A stretch of DNA of 64,000 nucleotides from a virus (Duplodnaviria; Caudoviricetes): IMG/VR virus record IMGVR_UViG_3300025789_000018; one strand, written 5' to 3'. Position 1 is the stretch's first letter. Every line of letters begins with the position of its first letter. The position numbers were made by a program, and so were the translations under genes. Positions 13,006-50,733 of the stretch are shown here, piece after piece. The notes below the pieces were generated by a model. It made no database searches. It had not been told where the DNA came from and saw nothing but the letters and a program-made list of their open reading frames with translations.

Positions 13006-13099
13006 AATATATTCCTTTCAAACAAGATTCATTATAAGTAGATGTAGGTCACGATGTAACAGCATCTACCTACTCTAACGCTTTTACGGAGCATCAGCT

Positions 13100-13648
13100 A
13101 TGTTTATATATAAGATCACGAACAAAGTCAATGGTAAAACATACATTGGCAAAACATCAAAGTCTATCGAAGAGAGATTTCGTAGACACTTCTATCATCA
13201 CAAAACAGGAAATACACATCTATATAGAGCCATGAGAAAATATGGATTCGATAGTTTTTCTGTAGCAATGATCGAAGAAACTTCTCAACTAAATGAGAGG
13301 GAGATATTCTGGATCAAAGAACTTCAGCCCGAATATAATATGACTAAAGGTGGAGATGGTGGCGATTCATCTAAATCTCTCACTTTCATAAAATCAATAG
13401 AAGTGTATCATAAAAACAAATCTAAAGAATCTTATGCTACATATGGAATGCTAGGTAAAAAACAATCACAGAAGTTCTTCGAATCGATCAAGAAATCTAA
13501 CAGTTGTCCAGTAATGTGTGAAGGTGTCCAATATTCTTCTGTAGGTGAAGCAGAAAAAGCTTATCCTGGTATCAATCTAAGAAAAAGATTGGACAACCCA
13601 AAATATCCACATTTCTATCGTTTGCGAGAAAGAACCAGAAGAGGTTAA
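13100..13648 (+). mobile_element. free-standing GIY-YIG homing endonuclease (Seg-like), antisense between gp45 and gp44
   Basis: MFIYKITNKVNGKTYIGKT, RFRRH, LNEREIFWI, YNMTKGGDGG; own TATAAGTA promoter at 13033. Confidence 0.88.
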
Positions 13649-14301
13649 CTGAAGGAAGAATCTTTCTCTGTCGCAATGAAGTATGTAACACCAGTCGCAG
13701 TAAACTTTGAGATGCCCGCCTTTGAGATTGATACATCATAGTCATTAGGAAGAAGCTTAAGATTTTCATTCTTAAAGATAGCATTGAATACAAGATTGGT
13801 AGAACCTACCACGATGCTGTACTTGTCCTTCGAAGGATTCTTGCTATCATCAGCCGATAGATAGATGTTTTCACCATCACCAGAGATGATTGTTTCTGGA
13901 AGACCAAGAACACCAGCAGCCTTTTGAACCTTAGTGAGGTCTTCTTGGGTGATAGATAGATTGATTTCAGCAGCAGGGAAGTTTAGATCCTTTGCGGGTG
14001 AAGTAACGAACGTTGATGGATCAGCGTAGGTGTATACTAGCTTACGCTTGTCTGAGGCAATAGTAGCCTGTGTTTCACCGAAGTGGATTTCTGGCTGATC
14101 AAACAGCAATAGCGCACCAAGAAACTTTGATAGATCATAGATTGCAAAGTCACGGTCAAAGGTTTCTTGAACTTCTGCACTCGCCATCACAGTCTTTTGT
14201 GGTGAGATAGTGCGAATCATATTACCAGAGCGAAACAGAATGCCGTGATTGATTGACGAAAAGTTCTTGAGGACAGTAAGGGTATTTTCACTTAGCTTCA
14301 T
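13645..14301 (-). CDS. gp45: sliding clamp
   Basis: MKLSENTLTVLKNFSSIN, FAIYDLSKFL, FKNENLKLLPNDYDVSIS. Confidence 0.95.
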   Translation of the reverse strand: MKLSENTLTVLKNFSSINHGILFRSGNMIRTISPQKTVMASAEVQETFDRDFAIYDLSKFLGALLLFDQPEIHFGETQATIASDKRKLVYTYADPSTFVTSPAKDLNFPAAEINLSITQEDLTKVQKAAGVLGLPETIISGDGENIYLSADDSKNPSKDKYSIVVGSTNLVFNAIFKNENLKLLPNDYDVSISKAGISKFTATGVTYFIATEKDSSFS

Positions 14302-14385
14302 AGTATCATCCTTTTCAATGTGGTGTTTCCAAAGATCACCTTGGAAACACCGTTATAACAAACCTATAGGCAGAAGTCTAGACTT

Positions 14386-15348
14386 TTATCCCTTTTTGCC
14401 CAACTTTGATGGATCAGCAGTAGCAGCAGCGCCAACGGCTGCTAGATCAGCGAGTGAACCACCAAACACGTATGAACCAACATGCTGTAGCTGAATCCAT
14501 GGAGCAAGCCATACCTTTAGACCAATCTTACGTGCCCACTGGCAGAACATATAGTCTTCTGATAGATAGCGATTCGAGTATTCAAAACCAAAAGCAGAAT
14601 GCTTTGCATCGTCAAGGAACGCGACAACTTGTTCCTGAGTAGCCTTAGGATTCTTCTTGTAGAACTCACGAATCTCATTGCTGATATGCGCGTGCTTGTT
14701 GTCGATAAGTGCATCAAACAAGCAAGGGATTTCACGCGAACCATCAAATGCGGCTGTGCGAACGTGGTCAGGGCGATACATCAGATGTGGGTATTCGGTG
14801 GTCATCTTTTCGAGAGCCGAACGCTTGATCATCATAAAGCCAGTACCAGATTCTAGAACTTCGGCGGGTTCAGCGATCTTGATTTCGTTCTTGCCATTAG
14901 CAGGATTGAAAACATAGTCACCAACAAACTTTTCAAGAACACTGGCATCCTGATCGGCAAAGCCCTTATCAACAGCCATCTTGATCTTTTCCCATGAGAT
15001 GCACTTCTTAGGATATGGACCACAAAGGATGTCGTATTCTGATTCTTCACTCATCAGAGCAAGCATCGTCATTACGTCATTGGAGTTAAAGCCAATGTCT
15101 GAGTCGATGAACATCAAGTGTGTGCAGTCTGACCGAAGGAACTCATCTACGCAGTAGTTACGAGCGCGGGTGATAAGTGATTCGTTGAACAGATAGTAAT
15201 ACTTGACTTCAACACCATAATGAACGGCTAGTGCTGATAGATCGTTTGTGCTACGACAGAACATGCCTGCACATGCACCACCATACATTGGAGTTGCAAC
15301 AAATAGTTTACGCTTGCGTAGTTCTTCAATAGGTACCTTAACTTCCAT
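14386..15348 (-). CDS. GT-A-fold glycosyltransferase-like protein
   Basis: LFVATPMYGG, ESLITRARN, LMFIDSDI (DxD), YLSEDYMFC, LQHVG. Confidence 0.65.
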   Translation of the reverse strand: MEVKVPIEELRKRKLFVATPMYGGACAGMFCRSTNDLSALAVHYGVEVKYYYLFNESLITRARNYCVDEFLRSDCTHLMFIDSDIGFNSNDVMTMLALMSEESEYDILCGPYPKKCISWEKIKMAVDKGFADQDASVLEKFVGDYVFNPANGKNEIKIAEPAEVLESGTGFMMIKRSALEKMTTEYPHLMYRPDHVRTAAFDGSREIPCLFDALIDNKHAHISNEIREFYKKNPKATQEQVVAFLDDAKHSAFGFEYSNRYLSEDYMFCQWARKIGLKVWLAPWIQLQHVGSYVFGGSLADLAAVGAAATADPSKLGKKG

Positions 15349-15355
15349 ATTATAT

Positions 15356-16060
15356 TCACCTTTCTTTTACAAAGCGACCATTTTGGTCTTGTTTTGATAA
15401 TCTTTTTTTAGCTTCATTACTTTTTATGCCAACATATAGTCCTTTATTGTTGAGGAATATTTCCCTATCGATCTTCAATATGTTTCCATCCAAATCTACA
15501 CAGACAACTTTACTCTTATTGTTGTAACCAAGTTTGGTTCCAATATCTTTCGCTGCAAGTCTTCTTATTTGTGACTGTTCATGTCCAAATATTTCTTCCC
15601 AAGTCTTATCTTTTTTCGCTAAAGATTGTTTTTGTTTGGTGTGTTCAGATCGTTTACACCCAAAAGATGGGTTGTGTACACCAAACATACGAACTTTTTT
15701 TCTTGATCCGGACGCATATGCAGAAACTAAACTATCAGATATGAGGGATTTTGTATGATCGGAAGTAATAAATCCACATCCTCTACCACCATATCTACCG
15801 TTTTCTGATTTTAGATTTGCCCACTCTTTGGATTGAACTATGTCATTTTTTTCTGAGAAGATCAAAGCAAACGTTGAACATAATTCCTGATCATCAAACC
15901 CAAAAATTTCTAAAGTTGTCTGTGTGGATTTATGTTTCTTTAGATGACGTATCCAATATTTTCCTGATCCTCTATATCTGAAAGGATCAGTATTCTCGGT
16001 TTTGCCGAAATATTTGAGTCCGCAATGTGTGCATTGTTTGACATAGAGATAAATAGTCAT
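15356..16060 (-). mobile_element. GIY-YIG homing endonuclease (CxxC subtype)
   Basis: IYLYVKQCTHCGLKYFGKT, YRGSGKYW, WANLKSENG, NUMOD-like basic repeats. Confidence 0.85.
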
Positions 16061-16144
16061 GCTGGTAACTCCTATATAGTTCTAGAGTAGTCGGAGGCGG
16101 CAACCTCGTGGACTACAATTATTTATATAGGAGTACATTTATAG

Positions 16145-16630
16145 CTATCTCTTATGCTCTAGATCGTGTACGTACAAAGCTATAATAGCATAATGTATTA
16201 CTTTCATCAAGTCTTTTCTCCAATCGTCTGTAGATCCTTTTTGACCGTAACGACCAGAATACTTATCAACATTGCCTAGACAAAATCCTAGTCCACGACC
16301 ACGATCAATCGCAATTTCAGTTGATTGTATGTTGCCTTGCGCATAGTGTTCGCCATACGTCTTATCGATATAATCGGCGATTTCTTGAAGTGCTTTGTCT
16401 TCGTTGTATTTATAATCGATTTTTGATGGTTGTATTCTACGAAAAAACTCTTCATTAGTTTCTCCATTATATTGATTATGTTGTTTTTTCATTTCTTTAC
16501 GATTAAGTTCATCTGCCAAATATGTGTCGATTGGGCGTTTATACGGGCTGTCTGCTACCTGCCGTCTTACAAAGTCCTCCCAAGTTTCTATTCCAAGACC
16601 AACTGGATTTAATCCATCACTTTCACTCAT
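16145..16630 (-). CDS. conserved phage protein (DUF3310-like)
   Basis: YKYNED..L, TYGEHY, GFCLGNVDKYSGRYGQKG, DLMKVIHYA. Confidence 0.65.
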   Translation of the reverse strand: MSESDGLNPVGLGIETWEDFVRRQVADSPYKRPIDTYLADELNRKEMKKQHNQYNGETNEEFFRRIQPSKIDYKYNEDKALQEIADYIDKTYGEHYAQGNIQSTEIAIDRGRGLGFCLGNVDKYSGRYGQKGSTDDWRKDLMKVIHYAIIALYVHDLEHKR

Positions 16631-17079
16631 TCTTCACCTTCCATTTCATATTGCAGATAAATCACACCCGCTTCTTCAAGAATGTCTTTAGCGAGTTTTG
16701 TGGATTCTTTCCAGTGTTCAGGCAGATTCTTAGGAACTTCTGCAATAACAGTTCTGATGCCAACTTGAATGATACCTTTGCAACATTCAGAGCATACAGG
16801 TAAACCATACACGTATAGTTTGGCTCCGTCAAGAGATATTCCATTTAAACATGCATTATAGATGCAGTTCATTTCTCCGTGAACGACATACTTATACTTC
16901 GTTTCACGATCATTCAAGCGATCATCATCTTTGATACCTCTTGGAAAGCCATTGTATCCAGTTGCCAGGACATTTTGATTTTTTCCAATAGCAACAACAC
17001 CAATCTGTTTAGATGGATCTTTTGACCAAGTTGAGATATTCTTAGCCGTATCCAAATGACGGCGTGTCCACTTATGCAT
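16627..17079 (-). CDS. cd: dCMP deaminase
   Basis: TGYNGFPRG, VVHGEMNCI, PVCSECC zinc motifs. Confidence 0.9.
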   Translation of the reverse strand: MHKWTRRHLDTAKNISTWSKDPSKQIGVVAIGKNQNVLATGYNGFPRGIKDDDRLNDRETKYKYVVHGEMNCIYNACLNGISLDGAKLYVYGLPVCSECCKGIIQVGIRTVIAEVPKNLPEHWKESTKLAKDILEEAGVIYLQYEMEGEE

Positions 17080-17993
17080 TATACAGTTTCTTTCTTCAAA
17101 CGAACTAGTTTCATTCCGTAGTTGTCTACTTTAGGTAGTGACTTCAGATCAATGTCTTTCTTCATAATCAACTGGTTCTTCTTGAATGGACCATAGTCAA
17201 CGTAATGATGCCATCTACCGTAGCGAAATACCATGCGGGCCACGTCTGGATGCATGTCTACGAGCATTTGTGACTTGTTGATTGTTCCCTCTGGATTAAG
17301 CTGGCCATCTCTCCATTGAGCCTTGTCTTGTGTGCCTTCAGCATGATAAAACTCAGCAGTGTTACCACCTTTGACAGTCTGTGTTGCAGCTTTGCCTTGA
17401 AGAAAAGCATTAAACTGAATAGTACAATCACCATCTTTCAATACACGAAGGCAGATATCAGTATCTTCGTTGTAACGACCACGCCAGCGATGCTTACAAT
17501 CATTTCGGATAAGCAATGTGGAATAGATACGAGTGTTTGTTACAAAGGCAGGATACTTCTGATTTGGTGCAATAAAGAAACGATATTGAAAACCAGAGAT
17601 AGGAACATTCTCATATCGGTCAACAAAGTCTTCAGCAACTTTGAAGATCACACCAGATTCAACGCGAATACGACTGTTTTCATGGAGACGATAAAAGTCT
17701 GTGATGTTGTCGTCCATTACCCAGTGACTAGTTGCACCAATAGAGATAGAATGATCCCAGCACCAGTTTCTAGCGCGACCTGGTCCGTCGCCGTGATTAC
17801 TGAAAGGTGCAACTAGAAGAGTGACATACTCACGGATGCCAAAGTTGTCTAGTGCTTGTTCATACAAAGCTTCATCCTGTGGTTCAATCGCAATGTAATG
17901 TGGCACTTTCATTCGTGCCAATGAACGAGAGGTCAGCATTGATTCATGCCGACCTTTACTAATGATATAGACAGGATATTTTGGATTAGTCAT
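17079..17993 (-). CDS. putative glycosyltransferase, TAGT/GREB1-like family
   Basis: YPVYIISKGR, ARNWCWDHS, HWVMDDNI, RGRYNEDTDICL, GGNT; start MTNPKY overlaps the partner stop. Confidence 0.65.
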   Translation of the reverse strand: MTNPKYPVYIISKGRHESMLTSRSLARMKVPHYIAIEPQDEALYEQALDNFGIREYVTLLVAPFSNHGDGPGRARNWCWDHSISIGATSHWVMDDNITDFYRLHENSRIRVESGVIFKVAEDFVDRYENVPISGFQYRFFIAPNQKYPAFVTNTRIYSTLLIRNDCKHRWRGRYNEDTDICLRVLKDGDCTIQFNAFLQGKAATQTVKGGNTAEFYHAEGTQDKAQWRDGQLNPEGTINKSQMLVDMHPDVARMVFRYGRWHHYVDYGPFKKNQLIMKKDIDLKSLPKVDNYGMKLVRLKKETV

Positions 17994-18336
17994 CAGTTTC
18001 AATCCACCTACGAAGTGCATTTGCATCACGATCTAGCTTTGGATGCCAGATGCTTTTTGTTTTGATAGTAAGATGCTGATCGATCAACTTGGCAAACTCT
18101 TCATAGTCTTCTTTGTTACGGAAGCTTACGTAAATCTGTTTATATGGTGGATTAGTATCTTGCTTGAACTCGGGCATTCCTACCCAATGTTTCTTCCACT
18201 TTACATCATCTTGCTCCAAAGTTTCGTCTTCAGGCAAGAATGCATCAAGAGTAGATACACCATAAGAGATGTTCTTTGAGTCAATCAGACTTTCGTATTC
18301 TGTAGATTCATCAACTACAGGCTTATTGTCTTCCAT
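17986..18336 (-). CDS. hypothetical protein coupled to the TAGT-like gene
   Basis: HWVGMPEFKQ, VSFRNKEDYEEFAKLIDQ, TKSIWHP; overlaps the downstream start. Confidence 0.7.
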   Translation of the reverse strand: MEDNKPVVDESTEYESLIDSKNISYGVSTLDAFLPEDETLEQDDVKWKKHWVGMPEFKQDTNPPYKQIYVSFRNKEDYEEFAKLIDQHLTIKTKSIWHPKLDRDANALRRWIETDD

Positions 18337-18349
18337 AATATACTCCGTC

Positions 18350-18865
18350 TTATGCGATAGCTAGTTTCTTATTGATTTTGTTGAACGCTTTCTGTTGTTT
18401 GAAAGCCTGTTCTTTGTGGATCAAACTAGCGCGATTGATATGAACAATGCCGTTTAGATGATCTAGTTCATGTTGAAACACACGAGCAGTTAGACCTTCA
18501 AACTTTTCTGTTCTCGTTTCGCCGTTAGGCATAGTAAAGCGAACTTTGATCACAGCTGGACGCTTGATCTTTACCGATAGCCCAGGATGACTTAAGCAGC
18601 CTTCTAACATATACACTTGCTCGGCGGAAGAGTCAACGATTTTTGGGTTGAAACATGCAAGAATCTGTTCGCCATTGATGACAAATGCACGATAGGGCAG
18701 ACCGACCTGATTCGCAGCAAGCCCCAAGCCTTTGTTCTCAATCATAGTCTCAGCTAGATCACGAGCCAACTGAATAGGATCAGTAGGTGGATTGCTGAAA
18801 TCAAAATATTCAAGTTCTGTTTTGAGAATAAGATCGTTCTTATCTACAAGAGGTAGAATAGCCAT
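18350..18865 (-). CDS. def: peptide deformylase
   Basis: GLGLAANQVG, EGCLS, QHELDH - the three PDF motifs. Confidence 0.95.
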   Translation of the reverse strand: MAILPLVDKNDLILKTELEYFDFSNPPTDPIQLARDLAETMIENKGLGLAANQVGLPYRAFVINGEQILACFNPKIVDSSAEQVYMLEGCLSHPGLSVKIKRPAVIKVRFTMPNGETRTEKFEGLTARVFQHELDHLNGIVHINRASLIHKEQAFKQQKAFNKINKKLAIA

Positions 18866-19242
18866 CAGTTTACTCCTAGGATTGGCTTAAGATTTGGTCG
18901 AACATAGTTTGGTCCTTTGATGATCTTGCCATCTTCGCGATGAACAGGCTTACCATCTTCACCAAGCTTGGTCATGTTACTATTGTGTACTTCTGCTAGA
19001 CAAGCATCTAGATCAATGCCAAAAGCAACACCAGCACCGTAGGTGACATATAGAATGTCAGTCAGCGCGTCTGCTACTTCTACCAAGTTCTTGTCCTTGA
19101 TCGCATCCTTAAGTTCCTGAAACTCTTCGCGAATCAGTTCTACGCGAAGTTTAATAACGTCTTTTGCAGGAAACCCTGGAGTATCTGGAGCATCTTGACC
19201 AAATACTGTAGTGAACTCTTTTACTTTTTCAAAGTTAGTCAT
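18865..19242 (-). CDS. MazG-like/all-alpha NTP pyrophosphohydrolase
   Basis: [36 protein letters not shown]. Confidence 0.85.
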
Positions 19243-19335
19243 GCTATTCCTCACATTAAAATTTATATAAATATATTGTGGTTCACGATATTACCAGTAT
19301 CCAACCACTCTAGTCCTCGTACAAGGAGTCCAGCC

Positions 19336-19914
19336 ATGAATACTTATTACGTCTATGCATATATCAGAAAATCTGATAACACACCATACTACATAGGTAA
19401 AGGGAAATCAAGAAGAATGTACGAAAAACATTCTGTTTCTATTCCCAAAGATAAATCCAAAATAGTTTTTCTAGAAACAAATCTTTCAGAGATTGGGGCA
19501 TTCGCATTAGAACGTCGATATATTAGATGGTATGGCAGAAAAGATTTAGGAACAGGCATTCTTCGCAATAGAACGGACGGAGGAGAAGGATGTTCCGGAA
19601 GAATTATGAGCGAAGAACACAAAATCAAAGTCTCTATAACTGGCAAGAAAAATAAAGGCAAAAAACATTCTGCCGAAACTATAGAAAAAAGAGCAGCGAA
19701 ACTAAGAGGCATTCCGCAAAGTTTAGAATTAGTAAGAAAACGAACAGGGCCCAGGATAGGCACAAAGGTGTCCGACGAAAGCAAACTAAAAAACTCGATA
19801 TCAAACAAAAATAGACCTAAAGAGTTATGTCCACATTGTTTAATAATTGCGTCTAAGGGTAATATTCTTAGATGGCACTTGGATAAATGTAAACAAGCTA
19901 CTCGACAACCATAA
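19336..19914 (+). mobile_element. GIY-YIG homing endonuclease with NUMOD3-like repeats, antisense downstream of gp46
   Basis: [37 protein letters not shown]; own TATAAATA at 19266. Confidence 0.87.
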
Positions 19915-21619
19915 CACTGAAATTTCTCTTCTTCTCAAAACGAATGATGTTAGTGAATTTGTCCATCAGTGATGCTCCCTTATGTGAAATGATGAACACA
20001 TTGGTGTCAGCCGTTACGCTGCTTAGAATCTTGAAGAACTCATCTGTACCACTAGTATCCAAAGAACTATCAAAAACCTCGTCCATAATCAAAAGATTTG
20101 TGCTGACGCTGTTACGAAGTTTTGCCACTGCTCTCCATGTAAACAAAATAGCTAAATCCAGGCGCATCTTTTCGCCTTCAGAGAATGACGCATAAGAGAA
20201 CTCATCACGAAACCGCGACTTAATCTTTTCATCAAAACTTTCATCAAGTTCAAACTGGACAAAGAAGTCCATTGCCGCAAGATACTTGTTGATTAGCTTG
20301 TTCATGACAGGAACATATTGCTTGATGATCTTGGTCTTGATACCACCATCTTTCAGCAGAACAGCAGCAGTACCCAACAAAGAACGATTTTCGGTTAGTT
20401 CTTCAATAAGTGTGTGAACGTCTTTCAGTTCTTTCTTGGCTTTGTTTAGATCAACAGCATCCGTCTCTACCTTAGTCTGCTTATTACGAAGTGCTTCAAT
20501 CTCTTTCTGCAACTCGCTGTTATACTTCTGGTACATACGAATCTTGTTGTTGCGGTCTGTTATCTCTGCATTATATTCTGAGATTTGATTGCTAATATCA
20601 ACAATCTCTTTCATTCGTGTATTGATCTTCGCCTGTTCTTCTGATAGTTTAGTTAAGGCTGTGTCTAACTCTTCTGCACTGGCAATCTTTGTGTTTAGAT
20701 TTTCTTCCTTGAAAACAGGATCAATGTCTTGTGTACAAGTCGGGCAGTGATCGTGAGTATGCAGAAACTTGATATGCTTGTTATGATCGGTCAGTTTGAA
20801 CTTCAACTCAGAGTGAAGCGTGGTGACCTTGTTCAATCTATCCGTAATAGATTGCTCATCGCCAATATTGAGTTTCAAATCGTCAATCTGTTCGGAGATT
20901 TTGTCAATCTCGGCATTTGCAGTCTCGATCAGAGTTTTATGTTCGTAAATCTTGCCGTGCTTGATGTCGATCAAGTCTTCATTGTTTTGCCGAAGTGATT
21001 CGATATGCTTCTTATTCAAATCAATCTTTTGTTCACAAAGAGCCAGTTGTGTGTTGGCATCCTTTAGTGCATCTTTGTTGTCTTGAATACGTGTCTTCAG
21101 TAGATTGTTCATCGTTGAGAAAATCTGGATATCCAGAAGGTCTTCAATGAAGTCACGTCTAGCTTGTGCTGGCAACTGCATGAAAGGAACAAAGGTAGAA
21201 GCACCGAGCGTGATGATCTGTGAGAATGACTTATGAGACAGCTTCAGGATATTCTTCTCCAGAACGTCCTGATAGTCACCAGACTTGGCTTCTTGATTCA
21301 GTAGAGAACCATCAACAAAGATTTCAAAGACGTTTGGCTTGATGCCACGTCGAACCAGATACTCTTTCTTACCAATAGCGAACTCGATTTCAACAAGCAA
21401 GTTCTTGCCGTTGATCGCATTCAAGAGTTGTGGCTTATTGATCTTGCGAAAGGGTTTACCATAAAGAGCAAACGAAATCGCTTCGATAAAGGTGGACTTA
21501 CCAGCGCCATTTTCACCGACAATCAGAGTTGATGCGGCTTCATTTAGTTTGACTTCTGTAAAGGTATTGCCCGTTGAAAGCAGGTTCCTCCAACGTACTA
21601 CTTTGAATAGAATCATCAT
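19898..21619 (-). CDS. gp46: recombination ATPase (SbcC/Rad50-like)
   Basis: [13 protein letters not shown] zinc hook, FSEGEKMR signature, LIMDEVFD. Confidence 0.95.
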
Positions 21620-24398: not shown

Positions 24399-24706
24399 AA
24401 ATCTTGAAAGCAAACTCTTCTTCTTCATAAATCTTCTTTCTCTCTTTGAGATGTTGCATAGTATAGTTCTGTTTGGACTTCCATGAAAGGTCATCTGCTA
24501 TATCAAAAAGAGTAACAGAATCTTTTATGTTTGACTTTCTTAACCCTCGACCAATAGACTGAAGTGTTTTGATCTTGGACTTGCCTGGTGATGCAAAGAT
24601 GATATTGTGAATGTTCTTGATGTTAACACCCGTGGAGAAACGTACCAGAACTGGCTACGATAATCGCGCCATGTTCAACCTCCTGTCCCACTTTATTTGG
24701 TTTCAT
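24382..24706 (-). CDS. uvsW: UvsW helicase C-terminal fragment (motifs V-VI), contains an apparent +1 frameshift
   Basis: Not in track. MKPNKVGQEVEHGAIIVASSGT then, in the +1 frame, FSTGVNIKNIHNIIFASPGKSKIKTLQSIGRGLRK...LFDIADD. Length is 325 nt (3n+1). Confidence 0.8.
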
Positions 24707-25364
24707 TTTTCTTATTCTTTCTTCTCTCTAGCATCATTGCTTTGAATGCAGGATCTTTCCAACGCTCTTTTAGTTTGCTACCGTCAGAACCTCTTTTTGG
24801 TCTATTTTTCATTTTTTCTAGATATTCAGGATCTTTCCATTTTTCTTTCAACTTATAGCTAGCGTCTTGTCTCTTATCTATATCACCATTCACTTCCGAC
24901 ATGGTTGTGACAAATCTACTATAAAAAACTTCGTCTGAGTATCGGTTTTTCATATATTCTGTGTGTTGCTTATGTCTCTCTTCCGACCAACTCATATTCT
25001 GCACTCTAACGTTATATTCTTCTGGTGTTAGATTCTTCCATTGTTCTCTAAAAAATACACTAAGATTTTTGCTGTGCAATCTTTTGATCCATCCATACTC
25101 TTTATTACACAAACGTCTATCACTATTATGATACATTAGCATTGTTGTCGCATATATCAGCTTAGGATTATTTGGGTGCATTTTTATCAAAAGCTGATGG
25201 GCAACATAGTGTTCTTCTGGTGTTAGCTTCACAAGATTGCTGGAATCATCAGTGCCACCTAAACATTTAGGAACAATGTGGTGTTTTTCATAATAATCAT
25301 CTACATTGATGCATCTAGTCTTTCCACGTTGTACTAACTCTCCGTAGATTCTCGTGTAGTCCAT
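24693..25364 (-). mobile_element. HNH homing endonuclease (MobE-like) inserted in uvsW
   Basis: YEKHHIVPKCLGGTDDSSNLVKLTPEEHYVAHQLL; TATAAGTA at 25399-25406. Confidence 0.9.
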
Positions 25365-26692
25365 ATAACTTTGCCTATCAATGTTGACGCCTGTATATTA
25401 CTTATACATTTACTGGTGTCAACATCATCATTTTCTGTAATGTTGTCAATTTTTTTCGTTGTACCATCCATTAGAGGTACGTTTTGGCCATCTTTTATTT
25501 TGAGAATGAAGTCATCAAAGTGTAATGATATCACGGTGTTTGTCTGTGTCTCTACCAGTTTACGTATTTCTTCGCGAACGTCACCGTCAACACCGCCATA
25601 GATGAAATGTATAGGTCTATCGCCAGCAGCATCATTGATTGCTTTATACAAGTCTTTGCCGTGCTTCTCCACGTATTGAAAAAGAAGTAGAGTATTACCT
25701 TTTAGAGATAGAGCAAGGTTCTTAACAAACTTGTTACGTGCTTGATTGCCAACAATGAAATCCATTTCCTGTTTGTAGTCATTGTCTTTGTTGACTTTAC
25801 GAACTTCTTCTGCGTACTTTAAGACAAGTATCTTAATCTTCAGTTCGGCCAAATGCTTCTGTTCTATTAGATCAGCCGTTGATGCAACACGCTTTGCTGT
25901 ACCAAATAGCCCTTCTAGTACCAGCTTATTCGTTTCAATGCCGTCTAGTGTACCAGTGAAACCAAACCGATGTTTGCAGTTGACAAGATTGTCCATGATT
26001 GCAGTAAGAGATTTAGCTTTGAAAAGATGACATTCATCACCCATTACCACATCATACTGTGAGAACCAAGACTTTGGTTGCTTATAGATTGACTGCCATG
26101 TTGAAATAGTAAACATAGCATTAGTCTTCTTATCAGCACCAGCAGTGATCTTGTGTACTAGTTCATCATAGCCATAAGACTTAAAATCATCTGCTAACTG
26201 ATGAACCAAAGAAATAGTTGGTACAATGATTAGAGTTTTTTTAGCGTAATACTGTGCGATCATATAAATGATCAATGACTTACCAGAAGCGGTAGGAGAC
26301 AGTAGGAGCGATCTTGTCTTACGTACTGCATGTGCCAGTGCAGCTAACTGGTAATCGCGTGGTGCGAACGGGAGGTTTAAGGATTGAGCAAAATCTTCAG
26401 CTTCCCTTAGTGAAAATGGTGTTTCGTTAAACTCATCACTAAACTGGACATCATATCCACGATTACGAGCGAATGCTAGAACGTTTTGAAACAATCCTGC
26501 ATAGACGGTCTTTGTCATCACATTGAACAAACGAATCTTGCCGTCCCATAGTCTTTGTCTGACTAGAGGATGAAACTTGGCATTTGGTACCATGAACGTA
26601 AAGTATTCTGACAACTCCATAGCTAGACCGCTTTCACAGTCTACTCTGATGTGTACCTCGTTTACCTTTGTGATGTATAATGTGTCTGTCAT
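25334..26692 (-). CDS. uvsW: UvsW SF2 helicase N-terminal fragment
   Basis: WDGKIRLF, SPTASGKS, GDECHLFKAKSL, GFTGTL; helicase similarity ends near REEIRKLVE. Confidence 0.92.
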   Translation of the reverse strand: MTDTLYITKVNEVHIRVDCESGLAMELSEYFTFMVPNAKFHPLVRQRLWDGKIRLFNVMTKTVYAGLFQNVLAFARNRGYDVQFSDEFNETPFSLREAEDFAQSLNLPFAPRDYQLAALAHAVRKTRSLLLSPTASGKSLIIYMIAQYYAKKTLIIVPTISLVHQLADDFKSYGYDELVHKITAGADKKTNAMFTISTWQSIYKQPKSWFSQYDVVMGDECHLFKAKSLTAIMDNLVNCKHRFGFTGTLDGIETNKLVLEGLFGTAKRVASTADLIEQKHLAELKIKILVLKYAEEVRKVNKDNDYKQEMDFIVGNQARNKFVKNLALSLKGNTLLLFQYVEKHGKDLYKAINDAAGDRPIHFIYGGVDGDVREEIRKLVETQTNTVISLHFDDFILKIKDGQNVPLMDGTTKKIDNITENDDVDTSKCISNIQASTLIGKVIWTTRESTES

Positions 26693-27126
26693 TAGTTTCC
26701 GTTTTTAAATCTCTGCCACTCAATATAGTTGCGAACTATGAACCCACGCTCTGTGACGTTCTTGATGATCGACTCAAGCAATGCGGTCTTTTCTTTTTGA
26801 TATGAAATCTTAAGTGTTAAGTTGATAATGTCTTGATCTGAATCGATATGCATCGGAATATCAGACTTAAGAATGGCGCGAGGATTTGGTTTCCATCCAC
26901 TTTCTTCCAGTGTTTCTCGGTCTAGTGTACCCATGAAGTATTCAAACTTCAGGTGATACAACTGCTTATAATCTGCTTCTAACTTCCGAAGCTGTAGTCG
27001 TTCGTTTGAGAATACCTTGTAGTATTTATGATGTAGTTTTGGGATATTTACTGCAACCTGATCAATCGCAGTGGTATCAATCTCTGAGTCTTCTGCCCAG
27101 AGGTCATAGATTTCTTCAAGCTTCAT
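26692..27126 (-). CDS. uvsY: recombination mediator
   Basis: W..DSEID, IPKLHHKYY; canonical position next to uvsW. Confidence 0.85.
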   Translation of the reverse strand: MKLEEIYDLWAEDSEIDTTAIDQVAVNIPKLHHKYYKVFSNERLQLRKLEADYKQLYHLKFEYFMGTLDRETLEESGWKPNPRAILKSDIPMHIDSDQDIINLTLKISYQKEKTALLESIIKNVTERGFIVRNYIEWQRFKNGN

Positions 27127-29944: not shown

Positions 29945-30023
29945 GCGCTGGTATGCCGCCTGACTTCTAATCAGGAGAAAGCTAACTGGACACATGGGGG
30001 TTCGAATCCCTCCCAGCGCGCCA
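29945..30023 (+). tRNA. tRNA-Arg(UCU)-like RNA lacking a D-arm
   Basis: GCGCTGG/CCAGCGC acceptor stem, CCTGA-CTTCTAA-TCAGG anticodon arm, GGGGG-TTCGAAT-CCCTC T-arm, GCCA end; only 7 nt where the D-arm should be. Confidence 0.75.
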
Positions 30024-30051
30024 GATTCTATATTCAATATTTCTTAGGGCT

Positions 30052-30261
30052 TTGATTATGATTGAAGGGTTGAACTTATGTATTCGAAGCACCGAAACTA
30101 TCAATAAAGGCATGGGCGGAAGAGATATGCCTTTGTATTATCTTAAAAAGTGTAAGACTGCACTTGAAGTTGCGACAGTCGCATTAGAAGAAGCATATGC
30201 TTCTGATGATGCAACAGAAATGCGACATATCATTTCTAATGCTCTGGAAGCTTTAAAGTGA
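30052..30261 (+). CDS. hypothetical protein (69 aa), 3' end overlaps a tRNA
   Basis: ORF in track; weak SD. Confidence 0.45.
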   Translation: MIMIEGLNLCIRSTETINKGMGGRDMPLYYLKKCKTALEVATVALEEAYASDDATEMRHIISNALEALK

Positions 30262-30314
30262 AGCCAGCCGCTCATAACGGCTAGAAGGCGGGGCAGTACC
30301 GTCACGGAGTACCA
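30241..30314 (+). tRNA. tRNA with CAU anticodon (Ile2 or Met), non-canonical
   Basis: GCTT/AAGC D-stem, AGCCG-CTCATAA-CGGCT anticodon arm, GGCGG-GGCAGTA-CCGTC T-arm, ACCA end; 74 nt. Confidence 0.7.
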
Positions 30315-30331
30315 AAAAAGAAAGTTTGTAA

Positions 30332-30408
30332 GGACCCTTAGCTTAGTAGGCTAAAGCATTCGACTTTTAATCGAAAGATCCTGGGTTCGAGTCCCAGAGG
30401 GTCCACCA
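30332..30408 (+). tRNA. tRNA-Lys (UUU)
   Basis: Canonical 77-nt cloverleaf, TTCGA-CTTTTAA-TCGAA, encoded CCA. Confidence 0.95.
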
Positions 30409-30571
30409 AACTAAGTGAAGGTAATTTATGATCAAGATCATACTTGTTGTGATGTTAATTTCGGTTGCAATAGCTATCATCAACGGTATATGTGATAAGG
30501 ATGATAATACTGCTGGTTGGAGTTAGCAACAAGGATACTGGTGAAAATCCAGGCGGGTCCACCAATTTAAT

Positions 30572-30646
30572 GCGCGATTAACTCAGCGGTAGAGTGCTGT
30601 CCTGACTCGACAGATGCCGGAAGTTCGATCCTTCCATCGCGCACCA
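30572..30646 (+). tRNA. tRNA-Val (GAC)
   Basis: 75-nt cloverleaf, CTGTC-CTGACTC-GACAG, A73, encoded CCA; unusual U37. Confidence 0.85.
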
Positions 30647-30649
30647 ATA

Positions 30650-31231
30650 TTATTGTGAAACTCTAAAAGCAGAACTTACACCCAAGGTAAACTTGTGTTC
30701 GCTATAGCCAATGTCAAACTGTAGATTCTGTTTCTTAGGTGGAACCCATGAAACATAGATGCCAGTTTTGACCTTTGTGTCATAGTAGACAGAAGGCATG
30801 ATTGTAAGTGTATCTGTTGGTGTAAAGTTGTATTCAGTCACATATGTCTGTGAATGTTTAGCAATCTGAACATCTGTACCAAAGTAAAAGTATTTGTTAA
30901 AAACATACTTTGATGGCACTTCAATGAAAACACCATTGTTATTATCGTATCCTAGCTTGGCTGATAAGTCAAACTTGTGATTATAAATGATAGCATACTT
31001 TGCACCAAAGCTGGTGTTATCTTTGGATACTTCTAAGTCCTTTGCAATAGCCATTCTAAACTCATAACCATCAGTACCTATTTCAGCCTGAAAAGTTTTA
31101 AGTGGAATGACGTCAGCATCGATACCTACGCCTGGTCTATCAGCATTGATCTGTTGATCTTCCGCGAGTGCTGGAGCAGAGAACAGAAGTGTTAGTGCTA
31201 CTATTACTGCTTTTGTTCTACGTAGCCACAT
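30650..31231 (-). CDS. secreted/outer-membrane beta-barrel-like protein
   Basis: Signal peptide ending ALA|ED, INADRPG motif, alternating aromatic beta strands, C-terminal LGVSSAF. Confidence 0.6.
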   Translation of the reverse strand: MWLRRTKAVIVALTLLFSAPALAEDQQINADRPGVGIDADVIPLKTFQAEIGTDGYEFRMAIAKDLEVSKDNTSFGAKYAIIYNHKFDLSAKLGYDNNNGVFIEVPSKYVFNKYFYFGTDVQIAKHSQTYVTEYNFTPTDTLTIMPSVYYDTKVKTGIYVSWVPPKKQNLQFDIGYSEHKFTLGVSSAFRVSQ

Positions 31232-31566
31232 CCTGCTTTGTCCTCATGGAGTGATGTTAGTTCGACATGCATTGCTTTGATTTCAGCAAACTCGGCCAAG
31301 ATCGTTTCGTGATCTTGCTGGCTTCTAGCTTCTGTCTTTCTGGCTTGAACTTCTTGACCTACCATGATTACACTAAGTAGAACTAGTTGAAGAAATGTCT
31401 GTGCGATCCATGAGATTGTAGCTGCAAGCCCAGCGTGAATAGCGTCTGGTAGACTGATTAGAGCCAACAAAGCAAACGCATAAGCACACCACATGGTGCC
31501 TACTGTATCTGTAAGGGTCACTGCAACCATGTCGTTGAACTTAGTGATGTTATCTTTGATAGACAT
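31204..31566 (-). CDS. membrane protein (DUF1003-like)
   Basis: Two TM segments, WIAQTFLQLVLLSVIMVGQ. Confidence 0.6.
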   Translation of the reverse strand: MSIKDNITKFNDMVAVTLTDTVGTMWCAYAFALLALISLPDAIHAGLAATISWIAQTFLQLVLLSVIMVGQEVQARKTEARSQQDHETILAEFAEIKAMHVELTSLHEDKAGCGYVEQKQ

Positions 31567-31611
31567 GATTATACTCCCTTTTTATTATTATTTATGATTT
31601 AGAGAGTTTGT

Positions 31612-31696
31612 GCGGGCGTGGGGGAATTGGTAGACCCGCGAGACTTAAAATCTTGTTGCTTCGGCAGTGCTGGTTCGATTCCAGTCGCCCGTACCA
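31612..31696 (+). tRNA. tRNA-Leu (UAA)
   Basis: 85 nt, CGAGA-CTTAAAA-TCTTG, long variable arm with TTCG loop, encoded CCA. Confidence 0.95.
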
Positions 31697-31712
31697 AATA
31701 AGTAACGAATAC

Positions 31713-31786
31713 TGCCCTTTCGTCTAATGGTAGGACCACGCCCTTTGAAGGCGTTAATCTTGGTTCGAATCCAAGCGGAGCATCCA
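31713..31786 (+). tRNA. tRNA-Gln (UUG)
   Basis: ACGCC-CTTTGAA-GGCGT, canonical T-arm, encoded CCA; the acceptor stem has two mismatches. Confidence 0.8.
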
Positions 31787-31795
31787 AAGTTTAAA

Positions 31796-31827
31796 GGGGA
31801 GTAGTTTTGCTACTCCCCCTTTTTTTA
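31796..31827. terminator. bidirectional intrinsic terminator
   Basis: GGGGAGTAG/CTACTCCCC stem with a T-run on plus and an A-rich flank, between convergent transcription units. Confidence 0.85.
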
Positions 31828-48092: not shown

Positions 48093-48095
48093 ATA

Positions 48096-49109
48096 TCACC
48101 CGATGTTTGTAAACCAATCGTAAATGAAGCCATAGTTGCTGTTAGCTTCAATCTGAGACAGTGGAATAGAAATAGATGCATTGCTTGTTGGATTGCCATT
48201 TGCATCAAGACCAGGAGTAATCTGTACATATTCTGCAATAAGAGAGTTGCCAGAAGTTGTAAAGGTTACGTTAGAGTTTAAACCAGTATATATGTTGCTA
48301 AGTGAAACCGATGTCGTATTTACCGCGGTTACTGTTGTATTTGCTGGCAATCCTTGAACGTTTGCTGTAATCCTAGAACCAACATCGATAGCATCAATAT
48401 CGGCATTTGTAAAGATTGTGTTACTGCCGTTACTGATTGTGCCAACAAAAGTATCACTATCACCAGATACACGGAAGTTGATATCAACAGTATTGATGAC
48501 GCCCTGTGTTGAGATTGGACCAAAGATATAGCCTTTGAGAACGAACTGAAGTTCCCAAATGATAGCATAGCGGTCATTGAAACTGGCTTCGTAAGTATCT
48601 TCATACTGAATGTTTTTTAAAACAACAGGAATATCCATCACAATACCCATTTCTGGAATGAGATTGATCGCTGTTGTCCACTCTGGCTTGAAGAATGGCA
48701 AAATCTGTTCTACAATGCGACAAGCATCATCGGCGTTTCTAGCAAGAATCGATAGATCGATGTTAAAGTTGTACGGAACAGGATTGTACTGATACCCGAG
48801 TGTGTTGCCCATATTTGTTAGATTGACATTCTTGCCAACCGTGTTTAACTTACGCGATGAATCGTATTCAACACTTTTGATTTCAAAAGACATTCTAGGT
48901 AGAACCTGATTGACCTGGCGTAGCAAGTCTGGGTTCTCTTGAAGTCGAACGAGATAACGATCTTTTGGACCATATGATAGTGGCACTTTCAGCGTATCAA
49001 CAGCATCTCCTGCTTCATTGACGCGATCAATGAGAATGTCATTGAACAACGAACCAAACAGAACAATATACTTTCTGATACTGCCAAAATAAAAGTTGTT
49101 GCCAAACAT
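48096..49109 (-). CDS. gp15: tail terminator/sheath stabilizer
   Basis: FGSLFNDI, KVPLSYGPK, LPRMSFE, PVPYN, EQILPFF. Confidence 0.93.
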   Translation of the reverse strand: MFGNNFYFGSIRKYIVLFGSLFNDILIDRVNEAGDAVDTLKVPLSYGPKDRYLVRLQENPDLLRQVNQVLPRMSFEIKSVEYDSSRKLNTVGKNVNLTNMGNTLGYQYNPVPYNFNIDLSILARNADDACRIVEQILPFFKPEWTTAINLIPEMGIVMDIPVVLKNIQYEDTYEASFNDRYAIIWELQFVLKGYIFGPISTQGVINTVDINFRVSGDSDTFVGTISNGSNTIFTNADIDAIDVGSRITANVQGLPANTTVTAVNTTSVSLSNIYTGLNSNVTFTTSGNSLIAEYVQITPGLDANGNPTSNASISIPLSQIEANSNYGFIYDWFTNIG

Positions 49110-49828
49110 TAAATCACATCTCCGAATGGATTGGTTATACTAAAGTCCACAAACGTATTTGCCAAAGCTACAAACTCTTCATTCTGTGTTGATGGATCGA
49201 TTTCATCTAGAACAAAAGTTTCGTTGACAATATCATAACCAGCTTCGGTAATAAGATCGTAACTTGCTTCGGTGAGATACCAGAAGTTACTGTCTGCCAC
49301 TGAATAGTTCTGTTGGATCGAATCGATGTTTGCGATGCCAGTGTTGAACTGTTCCGAATCGTAGTTGAACTTCTCTAGCTGCAACTCAAAGTATTGTAGC
49401 GATCCAGTCTGGTAGAAGGATCTTTCATGTTCAACGAACTTGATTTCAAAAATACCAGTTGTGAATGGAAAGTAAACAAGATCACCTTCTTGTGGGCGAA
49501 TCAAGTTGTATATGCTACCAATGTCTTGTGCGAACCTGCGACGACTCACCGATAGTGTAAGTTTGTCTGCTACGTTTAGACCGAACTTGCTGAGTAGATC
49601 GCCTTCACCTTGGAAACCTTCATAATCATTAATATACATTTCAAGTGGAATAGCCACGTTAAATGAAGACGTTGGTGCTTCATCAAATAACTTATCAATA
49701 TAGTTTGTTGTTCTCGGAAGATAATAGCAATCGATACCAAAAATCTGAATCATTTCGTCTGCTAGATTCTGTAGCAGATTCTGCTCAGGATTGTAATCAG
49801 AGTTTCGAAAGAAAAACGATGTCGGCAC
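49109..49828 (-). CDS. gp14: neck protein
   Basis: EQNLLQNL, GIDCYYLPR, GDLLSKFG, RPQEGDLVYFP, FEIKFVEHE; GTG start. Confidence 0.93.
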   Translation of the reverse strand: MPTSFFFRNSDYNPEQNLLQNLADEMIQIFGIDCYYLPRTTNYIDKLFDEAPTSSFNVAIPLEMYINDYEGFQGEGDLLSKFGLNVADKLTLSVSRRRFAQDIGSIYNLIRPQEGDLVYFPFTTGIFEIKFVEHERSFYQTGSLQYFELQLEKFNYDSEQFNTGIANIDSIQQNYSVADSNFWYLTEASYDLITEAGYDIVNETFVLDEIDPSTQNEEFVALANTFVDFSITNPFGDVI

Positions 49829-49928
49829 TTTTGATGATCCTAAAGATTGTTTTATGTTCTATTTATAGAATATCTATTGACAATCTTTAGGATCAGTGTA
49901 TACTCAGTAATGTACTGTAAGATATAGG

Positions 49929-50633
49929 TTAGGTAGTATATCCAGCATCTATTAGTGTATTCCACTTTTCAGTGTTTGGTTTAGCCATCTTTCTGATGCC
50001 ATCTTTGTACAATGCTCGTCTGCCACTCATAGAATCTGATTGTTTCTTTTTTTGATCTTCACTCTTCGGAACATCTTTCATTCTATTAGAAACCGAAACT
50101 CTATGATTTTCAGATTTATTATACTCAATCATTCTTTCTCTGGATGCCTGTATATCCTCTTGTGTTTGAGGAGGAAGTATTCTTTTTGACATCCCTATAT
50201 TAAACTTTTCAATATATGAAGGATTGGATTTCTGTTCTAAAGCTTTTCTTCTTATCTTTTCTTTATGTTCTTTTGTCTTAGCAATGCCTTTGCCCGTTGT
50301 GTTCTTTTGTATTTTGGTAAGAACTCCCTTTTCATAATCTATAAACTTTGCTGTGTTTCCACCATCTAATCCGTTCTCTTCTCTTAAGTTTGCCCATAGA
50401 TCAGATTCAACTATATTATTTTCTTTTGAGAACTTTAAAGCAAACTCTGTCGCTTCATGTTGATTTTTGAAATGAAACGTTTCTAGCGTAATATGCTTTG
50501 CATTATGTTTGCTTAAGTGTGATTTCCAATAAACACCAGAACCGCCATATGCATATGGATTATCTTGCTCTGTTTTGCCAAAATACTTTAAATCACAGTG
50601 AGAACACTGTTTGACGTATAGATAAATATTCAT
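49929..50633 (-). mobile_element. GIY-YIG homing endonuclease (CxxC subtype) between gp13 and gp14
   Basis: IYLYVKQCSHCDLKYFGKT, YGGSGVYW, WANLREENGLDGG; TATAAGTA at 50692. Confidence 0.87.
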
Positions 50634-50733
50634 GCTGATTCTCCTGCATAGAGTTAGTGTGGGTGGATGCTCTAACATCGTGACCCACAACTACTTATAC
50701 AAATAGAAATCTTCAATCATATCACAGACGGGT

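Follow-up and report, generated by a model that had tools for sequence, protein, structure and literature searches.

A covarying two-hairpin module at the head of homing endonuclease genes in T4-like phages, possibly framed by facing late promoters

The locus described here, a 64,000-nt stretch of phage DNA (the window), raises the question of what one and the same folded element does in front of four nuclease genes, and on which strand it acts. All four sites were found exactly as an earlier note on this DNA had described them, each with a TATAA[AG]TA box, 3-4 nt, a first hairpin (HP1), and then YCTA, GGAG, CAGC, and ATG (Table 1). A covariance-model scan of the window returned the four copies at 57-71 bits and everything else at or below 16 bits. 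The 11-mer GTRGNNCACGA occurs six times in the window against 0.45 expected; two of these matches, at 2455 (-) and 4142 (+), fall within coding regions, have no hairpin, and were set aside as chance. Late-promoter boxes number 25 in the window, compared to 6 expected. The description of the four genes as GIY-YIG genes is backed by a Pfam GIY-YIG match for the product of copy 1 only; copies 2-4 are nuclease-like by PHROG match, NUMOD3, or paralogy.

Table 1. Positions of the parts of the four module copies in the window
Copy	Feature	Position	Strand	Remarks
1	Forward late-promoter box TATAAGTA	13033..13040	+	3 nt 5' of HP1
1	HP1	13044..13073	+	6 bp, CAC bulge, 4 bp, 6-nt loop, 1-nt bulge; 70.7 bits (covariance model)
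1	TCTA, HP2 (ACGCT/AGCAT), CAGC	13074..13098	+	HP2 holds AG of the GGAG Shine-Dalgarno (SD) sequence, 13088-13091
1	GIY-YIG homing endonuclease ORF	13100..13648	+	182 aa
2	Forward late-promoter box TATAAATA	16120..16127	-	
2	HP1	16087..16116	-	69.4 bits (covariance model)
2	TCTA, HP2 (GAACT/AGTT(A)C) with SD, CAGC	16061..16086	-	
2	Inverted late-promoter box GATAAATA	16048..16055	+	Codons 2-4 (ACT ATT TAT C); 5 nt from GCTG
2	Nuclease ORF	15356..16060	-	234 aa; NUMOD3, weak phrog_314; N-terminus IYLY...YFGKT
3	Forward late-promoter box TATAAATA	19266..19273	+	
3	HP1	19278..19308	+	7-nt loop; 57.4 bits (covariance model)
3	TCTA, irregular HP2 region with SD, CAGC	19309..19334	+	
3	Inverted box AATAAGTA	19341..19348	-	Opposite strand; codons AAT ACT TAT T
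3	Nuclease ORF	19336..19914	+	192 aa; phrog_314, 3e-12; YVYAY...YYIGKG
4	Forward late-promoter box TATAAGTA	50692..50699	-	
4	HP1	50659..50688	-	70.4 bits (covariance model)
4	ACTA, HP2 (ACTCT/AGAAT) with SD, CAGC	50634..50658	-	
4	Inverted box GATAAATA	50621..50628	+	Opposite strand; codons AAT ATT TAT C
4	Nuclease ORF	49929..50633	-	234 aa; paralogue of copy 2, 54% identity over 108 aa

The module is widespread at the head of homing nuclease genes in freshwater T4-like phages. The window itself was traced, among the datasets listed, to freshwater DNA metagenomes only. Two IMG/VR scans yielded 188 unique copies, 160 of them accompanied by an ORF of at least 130 aa, and complete viral genomes carry between 1 and 13 copies. 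Among 79 downstream ORFs, any one of which may match more than one family, 38 matched NUMOD3, 17 HNH (PF01844), 7, 3, and 2 three other HNH families, 6 GIY-YIG, and 5 SegE-type GIY-YIG; HNH genes thus carry the module likewise, and it is not specific to GIY-YIG genes. Free-standing homing endonuclease cassettes are recognized by a nuclease domain together with presence/absence polymorphism between close relatives, and both were found here, with cassette insertions and deletions distinguishing the window from a 97-99% identical contig. In cultured phages, neither megablast with window positions 12000-20000 nor blastn with a 90-nt leader gave a match, and the covariance model, run on six of them, returned nothing in DLP_6, phiN3, phiM12, S-BM3, and S-CBWM1 and one weak match in Caulobacter phage Cr30. 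A tblastn search with the copy-2 nuclease recovered only two Vibrio phages (34% identity).

The central proposal of the earlier note, a conserved covarying structure travelling with homing endonuclease genes, was borne out by free-position pairing and covariation tests. When the 5' arm of stem 1 was left free in an IMG/VR pattern scan, 103 of 115 matches were perfectly paired at all six stem-1 pairs and at both free stem-2 pairs. HP1 is 98.8-99.1% paired across 87 distinct sequences, with double changes at 9 of 10 pairs; the covariation score reaches 0.50 (0.16 in shuffles), and 92.6% of cells are paired compared to at most 52% with the partners slid. Two details required correction. The bulge, taken to be an invariant CAC, is CRC (among 89 copies sampled independently, 57 have CGC and 32 have CAC), and pairing of CTCT with GGAG is not conserved, being broken by ACTA in copy 4 and by CCTA variants; it was dropped because a second covarying hairpin (HP2), absent from the earlier note, accounts for the covariation instead. 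HP2 holds half of the SD sequence (AG of GGAG) and is closed at its base by CUA/CAG pairing; the first anchored HP2 parse was noisy, owing to an optional C in the regular expression, and the hairpin is established by covariation, strand pairing, and RNAalifold.

The earlier note did not recognize the element as a named family, and no Rfam 15 family matched it at or above the gathering score. Scanned at gathering scores, the window gave six tRNAs only, and in E-value mode the best overlap at two leader loci was the S15 leader, with 21 bits against a gathering score of 39.5; known ribozyme and riboswitch families in Rfam matched neither strand. A K-turn reading of the CAC bulge was rejected, the next pairs being, from sequence, Watson-Crick G-C and A-U and not sheared G·A, as was pseudoknot pairing of CAGC with the HP1 loop, since the complementarity that this requires is not kept among the loops (CGGCAA, CGCCAA, TGGGGA, and others).

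Which strand carries the selected fold can be read from the mismatches, an A·C on one strand being a G·U on the opposite strand. Among 43 distinct stem-1 arm pairs, 24 are perfect, 18 contain one sense-strand A·C, none contains a G·U, and one has another mismatch (binomial p = 7.6e-6 for A·C versus G·U, with the reservation that the module sequences are mutually related and the counts not fully independent). By orientation relative to the upstream neighbour, the counts are 14 A·C to 0 G·U in inverted cassettes and 7 to 1 in co-oriented ones. At the base of HP2, the CUA/CAG pairs read C-G, U-A, and A·C on the sense strand and C-G, U-A, and G·U on the antisense strand, where they lengthen the hairpin (HP2') to 8 bp; in the window, the HP2 region forms an 8-bp helix including two G·U pairs on the minus strand of copy 1 and a 9-bp helix on the plus strand of copy 4. 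HP1 is equally stable on both strands (-9.2 versus -9.3 kcal/mol), whereas the core as a whole is more stable antisense in 78 of 82 copies (mean -17.2 kcal/mol, compared to -13.5 kcal/mol sense), and RNAalifold recovers HP2 as a consensus helix on the antisense strand only. The pairing statistics show selection for the fold to act on the opposite strand to that of the nuclease mRNA, where the stem-loop is also stable.

These data bear directly on the reading in which the element is a sense mRNA leader, as the earlier note had it, and which we now regard as unlikely. HP1 would then be a 5'-terminal hairpin acting as a stabilizer or protein-binding operator, and HP2 would partly mask the SD sequence, attenuating translation in cis. 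Such a role is suggested by the position of HP1 at the predicted late start, by its equal stability on this strand, by a conserved 3x1 internal loop resembling a protein site, and by the inclusion of the AG of GGAG in HP2; however, the fold is not optimized on the sense strand, as the one-sided stem-1 mismatches indicate, and sense-strand HP2 averages only -2.6 kcal/mol, contains conserved A·C mismatches, and escapes RNAalifold. HP1 loops, moreover, occur both ways round (six reverse-complement pairs), as would follow from use of both strands. The invariant nucleotides are the same in front of unrelated nucleases, so that autoregulation by the cognate endonuclease of each copy is unlikely.

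The likely mechanism changed from that of the earlier note with the recognition of a second, inverted late-promoter box (TATTTAT), missing from that account, in codons 2-4. The forward box lies 3-5 nt 5' of HP1 in 79 of 83 copies; on the opposite strand, NATAAATA was found in 65 of 83 copies, 5-7 nt from GCUG, mirroring the spacing of the forward box to HP1, and in about 20% of copies, including copy 1 of the window (TTTATATAT), the reverse box is missing or degenerate. TATTTAT is conserved across different reading frames and in HNH genes, forcing an MxIY N-terminus, and its distance from CAGC is constant even where the ATG lies upstream of CAGC. A perfect reverse box also occurs without a forward box in L027 (twice), L062, and L132. 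A T4 late box spans -13 to -6, which places both predicted starts at the ends of the core, so that the two late transcripts would overlap exactly across it.

We therefore favor, with a probability of about one half, the reading that each of the four sites carries a copy of a portable ~95-bp head module, which belongs to free-standing homing endonuclease genes of T4-like phages with a TATAAATA-type late promoter, and that this module combines facing late promoters with antisense control. Its proposed order is a forward late box, a 3-5 nt spacer, a core of 55-60 nt, a 5-7 nt spacer, and an inverted late box in codons 2-4, the core comprising HP1 with its CRC/Y internal loop and HP2 with CUA/CAG at its base. 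A candidate opposite-strand promoter at the 5' end of the target, as in systems of face-to-face promoters, is present as judged from sequence, and transcription from both promoters is predicted on the same grounds. The reverse promoter would yield a structured antisense RNA consisting of 5' GCUG, HP2', HP1', and a U-rich tail, which probably restrains the nuclease, whose synthesis would be held low by RNA-RNA pairing over the leader and SD sequence, by convergent-promoter interference, or by both. The predicted antisense RNA stops short of the AUG.

On average, 5.9 of the first 10 nt of the tail after HP1' are U; termination there is doubtful because the U runs are only 2-4 nt long, and HP1' was not called in a simple terminator scan. 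Compared with their upstream neighbour, 104 cassettes run in the opposite direction (inverted) and 58 in the same one (co-oriented); in the inverted ones, the first ATG of the neighbour follows beyond HP1 at a median distance of 59 nt. In these inverted insertions (about two-thirds), the antisense transcript would run into the neighbouring phage gene, which would thereby gain a late promoter and a stable 5' leader. More tentatively, the module may represent an undescribed class of mobile-element control module, in which strand-symmetric late promoters surround a two-hairpin core and the antisense transcript is the functional RNA; it might serve both as a self-limiting regulator of the nuclease and as an orientation-independent adaptor sparing the neighbour gene, and recombination at the module might bring it in front of unrelated nuclease genes. 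In the antisense-RNA model, the conserved CRC/Y internal loop has no assigned role.

The inverted box could also act within RNA, by gating of read-through transcripts as in T4 gene e, I-TevI, segB, and Aeh1 mobE (PMC3014915, PMC2988022). The box AUAAAUA would pair with UAUUUAU of codons 2-4, forming a helix (P0) that closes a three-way junction around the SD sequence and AUG, and late transcripts, which lack the 5' strand, would be translated. Most copies show complementarity between the box and codons 2-4, in 71% of copies five or more upstream-downstream pairs are part of the minimum-energy fold of the read-through RNA, two in-helix positions pair above shuffled partners (0.42 versus 0.25 and 0.47 versus 0.32), and TATAAGTA is matched by TACTTAT in L002 and L075. 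We nevertheless consider gating quite improbable. Predicted SD-AUG accessibility differs little between read-through RNA (0.43) and late RNA (0.49), and the CTAAATA and TATTTAG variants do not covary. In addition, the reverse box persists in cassettes without a forward box, 64% of cassettes receive no sense read-through from the operon because they are inverted, and the antisense-strand pairing bias is left unexplained. Between the base 5' of the forward box and the base 3' of TATTTAT, no covariation was found (0.33 versus 0.27 expected).

Insertions relative to the 97-99% identical contig start precisely with the promoter box, and their junction carries a 6-bp repeat, a pattern that would also suit a DNA-level signal. 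In that case, the strand opposite the nuclease gene, when single-stranded in the course of replication or recombination, would fold into a hairpin or cruciform arm that marks mobility, recombination, or a cassette boundary. DNA hairpins, too, tolerate G·T better than any other mismatch, so that the strand bias fits single-stranded DNA equally well, and loop inversions are typical of DNA hairpins; however, two boxes, each one promoter-to-start distance from an end of the core, fit transcription and not DNA folding, no candidate structure-specific enzyme is linked to the module, and we know of no requirement for an element-borne hairpin in GIY-YIG or HNH homing, which makes this reading very improbable.

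To our knowledge, the control of free-standing homing endonucleases in phage hosts has been described only for a handful of T-even genes. The module would offer a single, highly conserved solution that environmental T4-like and jumbo phages have in common for hundreds of nuclease genes unrelated to one another, and a general rule thereby becomes testable. Absent from Rfam, this RNA motif bears the marks of selection on the opposite strand to that of the following gene, and does so with rare clarity. If the antisense RNA of the favored reading is real, it would constitute a widespread family of phage-encoded regulatory RNAs, and these selfish genes would carry their own insulation, giving a promoter to the displaced neighbour. 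In metagenomic phage contigs, the module is also a good marker by which late promoters and homing endonuclease cassettes can be annotated.

Among the closest known systems, the T-even genes I-TevI, I-TevII, I-TevIII, segB, and Aeh1 mobE combine a late promoter with hairpins sequestering the ribosome-binding site (PMC2988022, PMC3014915). In the module, as in these genes, a late promoter directly precedes a homing endonuclease gene and there is RNA structure where translation starts; the theme of a nuclease kept low and late is common to both. The T-even genes, however, have one stable SD hairpin with the late start inside it, whereas both hairpins of the module are located entirely 3' of the predicted late start, which is spanned only by the weak helix between the box and codons 2-4, with modest covariation. 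Furthermore, the SD hairpin of the module is weak on the mRNA strand, its fold being optimized on the other strand, and the module has a second, inverted late box in the coding start and is common to many nuclease genes unrelated to one another. T4 seg and mob genes, for their part, contain embedded promoters from which neighbouring genes are transcribed (PMC2988022).

The PeSL cassettes of T4-type phages, composed of an early sigma-70 promoter and a terminator stem-loop (PMC4122927), are also short repeated modules that flank variable genes and accompany gene shuffling. They differ in not being tied to nucleases, while the module has late promoters on either side of a two-hairpin core; identification of the module as a PeSL was rejected, since a late box precedes the hairpins and the consensus differs. 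In cyanophage S-PM2, the CfrI antisense RNA (~225 nt) runs over a homing endonuclease gene and joins it to psbA (PMC2984593), and it thus shares with the module an antisense RNA over a homing endonuclease gene in a T4-like phage. No common sequence or structure was found between CfrI and the module, the covariance model being blank in cyanophages S-BM3 and S-CBWM1.

IS10 RNA-IN/RNA-OUT and P22 sar-ant are systems of face-to-face promoters with 5'-overlapping antisense RNA. They resemble the proposed module in that a short antisense RNA with a stable fold, overlapping the ribosome-binding region, restrains a selfish element or a phage gene, and in that the antisense promoter is located within the 5' end of the target or directly behind it. 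The module, which is known from its sequence, would differ from them in having phage late promoters on both sides, in an overlap that ends before the AUG, and in a transcript that may enter the neighbouring gene.

The window derives from a T4-like phage, whose portal protein shows 58% identity to that of Stenotrophomonas phage DLP_6, followed by Caulobacter Cr30 and the Sinorhizobium phiM12 group, and whose DNA is present in many freshwater metagenomes. The motif TATAA[AG]TA, found 25 times compared with 6 expected and nearly always on the gene-coding minus strand, is, judged by its sequence, the T4-type late promoter. All four leader sequences match the reading given in the earlier note exactly. 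In each copy, the late box is followed by a 3-4 nt spacer, the first hairpin (HP1), YCTA, a stretch containing the Shine-Dalgarno (SD) GGAG, CAGC, 0-1 nt, and ATG; within HP1, a 6-bp outer stem and a 4-bp inner stem are separated by a CAC bulge that faces a single pyrimidine, and a loop of 6-7 nt caps the hairpin. The four copies score 57-71 bits with the covariance model, compared with at most 16 bits in the rest of the window; two additional 11-mer matches were rejected as chance occurrences. The assignment of all four genes to the GIY-YIG family stood clearly for copy 1, while copies 2-4 encode nucleases or nuclease-like proteins on other evidence (see the table).

The first IMG/VR scan, whose pattern prescribed nothing beyond the bulge, CTA, GGAG, and parts of the 3' arms and so left stem 1 free throughout its 5' arm and stem 2 free at its inner positions, identified at least 111 loci. 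Among the 115 matches listed, 103 are perfectly paired at all free positions, and nearly all are preceded by (N)ATAAATA. The covariance model recovered further variants outside the reach of this pattern, including the outer stems GTCTGT/ACAGAC and GTCCGT/ACGGAC, the inner stem GGTA/TACC, and a CGC bulge. Among 87 distinct, mutually related sequences, HP1 is paired at 98.8-99.1%, with double changes at 14 of 15 modelled pairs and a covariation score of 0.50, compared with 0.16 after shuffling and at most 0.12 with partners slid. The perfectly paired matches and the double changes uphold the covarying structure, whereas the supposed invariance of the CAC bulge did not survive a second scan, anchored on the commonest HP2 (second hairpin) sequence alone, which sampled HP1 without bias: its 89 additional distinct HP1 versions carry CGC in 57 and CAC in 32 cases, opposed by C (75), T (13), or A (1). 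Over all loci there are at least 188 unique modules, related to one another in sequence, so that counts overstate independence; complete viral genomes carry 1-13 copies. T lies directly 5' of HP1 in 176 of 187 modules, which places A right after HP1' on the antisense strand. Rfam contains no match to the module, which the earlier note did not recognise as a named family.

Among the 188 modules listed, 160 are followed by an open reading frame (ORF) of at least 130 aa, which, together with the Pfam matches, confirms the association with homing endonucleases. The ORF is short or absent behind 18 modules, of which about ten retain clear nuclease remnants and five have none; one (L215) was discarded as an artefact of the module search, its full ORF lying further downstream. 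Intact modules whose nuclease ORF is truncated, frameshifted, or gone occur at L110, L015:8814-8872, L029:2484, L160, and L193, and at L139, L151, L175, and L228; the leader can outlast its gene. In a Pfam scan of 79 downstream proteins, allowing multiple family matches per protein, NUMOD3 was found in 38, HNH (PF01844) in 17, three further HNH families in 7, 3, and 2, GIY-YIG in 6, and SegE-type GIY-YIG in 5; nucleases of no fewer than two unrelated catalytic families thus use the module.

Downstream of HP1, the CTCT:GGAG pairing suggested previously is broken by copy 4 and by CCTA variants, and HP2 takes its place: the five bases 3' of CTA pair with AG of GGAG and the following three bases, and CTA pairs with CAG at the base. 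Many compensatory versions occur (e.g., ATACT/AGTAT, TATCT/AGATA, GAAAT/ATTTC, GCGTC/GGCGC) in alignments that are imperfect. Shortly downstream of the start codon lies TATTTAT, as ATG-NNT-ATT-TAT, ATG-ATA-TTT-AT, ATG-TAT-TTA, or behind ATG-TCC-AGC-N6. Since it occurs in several reading frames, in both HNH and GIY-YIG genes, and at a constant 5-7 nt from CAGC even when ATG lies upstream of CAGC, both motifs are nucleic-acid elements and not protein constraints. TATTTAT is the late box reverse-complemented: 65 of 83 copies carry NATAAATA on the other strand at 5-7 nt from GCTG, which mirrors the 3-5 nt between forward box and HP1. In L027 (two copies), L062, and L132, the inverted box in codons 2-4 is perfect, but no forward late box is recognizable; ATGACAACAA, which may represent another promoter type, lies upstream of both L027 copies.

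HP1 is nearly devoid of G·U pairs, and where its pairing departs from Watson-Crick, the nuclease mRNA strand has A·C, equivalent to G·U on the opposite strand. Of the 43 distinct arm pairs of stem 1, 24 match perfectly and 18 have a single A·C; G·U occurs in none, and the remaining one has a different mismatch (binomial p = 7.6e-6, the sequences being related). A·C outnumbers G·U by 14 to 0 in cassettes (module plus nuclease gene) inverted relative to the upstream neighbour and by 7 to 1 in co-oriented ones, which makes the bias a property of the module and not of the surrounding operon RNA. The same holds for CUA/CAG and HP2 position 2, which form A·C in the sense direction and G·U in the antisense one. 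HP2 thus amounts to a weak helix of 3-5 bp in the mRNA (mean -2.6 kcal/mol), whereas the antisense strand incorporates it into a helix of 8 bp; RNAalifold recovers it on the antisense strand alone. The whole core, i.e., the folded part between the two boxes, averages -17.2 kcal/mol antisense compared with -13.5 sense and is more stable antisense in 78 of 82 copies; the four window copies share a two-hairpin antisense shape more stable by 0.7-2.6 kcal/mol. A plain mRNA leader acting on the sense strand fits these data in part, with HP1 at +1 and the SD within HP2, but neither the strand bias nor the low stability of HP2 in the mRNA agrees with it. Moreover, HP1 loops occur in both orientations in IMG/VR loci (e.g., L027, L047, L012, L102), forming six reverse-complement pairs (TTGCCG/CGGCAA, TTGCAG/CTGCAA, TTGGCG/CGCCAA, TTGACG/CGTCAA, TTGAAG/CTTCAA, TTACCAG/CTGGTAA); the loop appears to flip with the stems unchanged, which fits the use of both strands.

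T4 late boxes occupy positions -13 to -6, which would place the forward start at HP1 bases 1-3 and the reverse start at the G of GCUG. We infer that both boxes fire and that the two late transcripts would overlap over exactly the 55-60 nt core. The predicted antisense RNA would read 5' GCUG, HP2', one purine, HP1', and a tail rich in U (on average 5.9 U per 10 nt). This RNA, the head-on promoters, or both may hold down nuclease synthesis by covering the leader and SD. Similar antisense-RNA logic holds down the targets of IS10 RNA-OUT and P22 sar. A precedent in a T4-like phage is CfrI of cyanophage S-PM2, an antisense RNA that runs across a homing endonuclease gene (PMC2984593).

The classic T4 device, in which the box pairs with codons 2-4 in read-through RNA, is possible and compatible with the other readings. 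This pairing appears in the minimum-energy fold of 71% of copies, and the two inner positions pair above shuffled partners (0.42 vs 0.25 and 0.47 vs 0.32); however, the predicted accessibility of SD-AUG is nearly unchanged (0.43 vs 0.49), variants of the box show no covariation, a perfect reverse box persists in cassettes that lack the forward one, and two-thirds of cassettes lack co-oriented read-through. A single-stranded DNA hairpin of the antisense strand is also possible and compatible with the pairing data, but leaves unaccounted for two promoter boxes lying one start-distance from the core ends.

The proposed antisense transcript could plausibly also serve the neighbouring gene. In inverted cassettes (104 of 162), a median distance of 59 nt separates HP1 from the first ATG of the neighbour lying beyond it, and these neighbours, including those of copies 1 and 3, would receive from the reverse box a late promoter together with a 5' leader that is folded. 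Such an arrangement would match T4 seg and mob genes, which are known to carry promoters for neighbours (PMC2988022).

Whole cassettes distinguish the window from G001, a contig 97-99% identical to it. In G001, two further cassettes, each a leader with its nuclease gene, occupy positions where the window has no insert. One of them begins precisely at the TATAAATA box and has the 6-bp repeat GTCTTT at each junction; the other immediately follows tRNA-Gln, of which the G001 version has a strongly diverged 3' half. The window tRNA cluster includes a tRNA detected by Rfam (40.9 bits) without an ARAGORN call. At the copy 2 locus, G001 has a different gene (213 aa, DRSGSM motif in the N-terminus) in place of the nuclease cassette, and the adjacent gene is only 72% identical. 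An HNH homing endonuclease cassette of the window, missing from G001, has a late box and no structured leader; thus, some nuclease genes do without the module.

Coordinates of modules, cassettes, and associated features
Feature	Coordinates	Strand	Remarks
Copy 1	window 13033	+	clear GIY-YIG enzyme
Copy 2	window 16127	-	NUMOD3 present
Copy 3	window 19266	+	PHROG homing endonuclease
Copy 4	window 50699	-	paralogue of copy 2 gene
Neighbour of copy 1	window 12067-13005	-	inverted cassette
Neighbour of copy 3	window 18865-19254	-	inverted cassette
Copy 2 locus	window 15368-16157; G001 9777-10413		
HNH cassette	window 24649-25540; ORF 24693-25364	-	phrog_655, 1.6e-49
Late box of HNH cassette	window 25399-25406		
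tRNA (Rfam)	window 29945-30020		tRNA cluster 29945-31786
G001 extra cassettes	G001 4894-5606 and 26415-27005		empty window sites ~11203 and ~31786-31796
Cr30 copy	KF301602.1 136932-137006 (locus L122 1501-1575)		diverged, CGC bulge, 28 bits
Cr30 homing endonuclease	137003-137800		annotated; preceded by the Cr30 copy

We class the module as a putative regulatory RNA heading homing endonuclease genes, with what its sequence suggests is an unusual two-faced, antisense-optimized architecture. It differs from PeSL cassettes, which are early promoter plus terminator units (PMC4122927). With the T-even nuclease hairpins it shares a common theme, but not their defining feature, a late start inside the SD hairpin. 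Among the cultured phages tested by the covariance model, no copy was found in DLP_6, phiN3, phiM12, S-BM3, or S-CBWM1, and Caulobacter phage Cr30 alone carries one, making it a possible laboratory system for the module.
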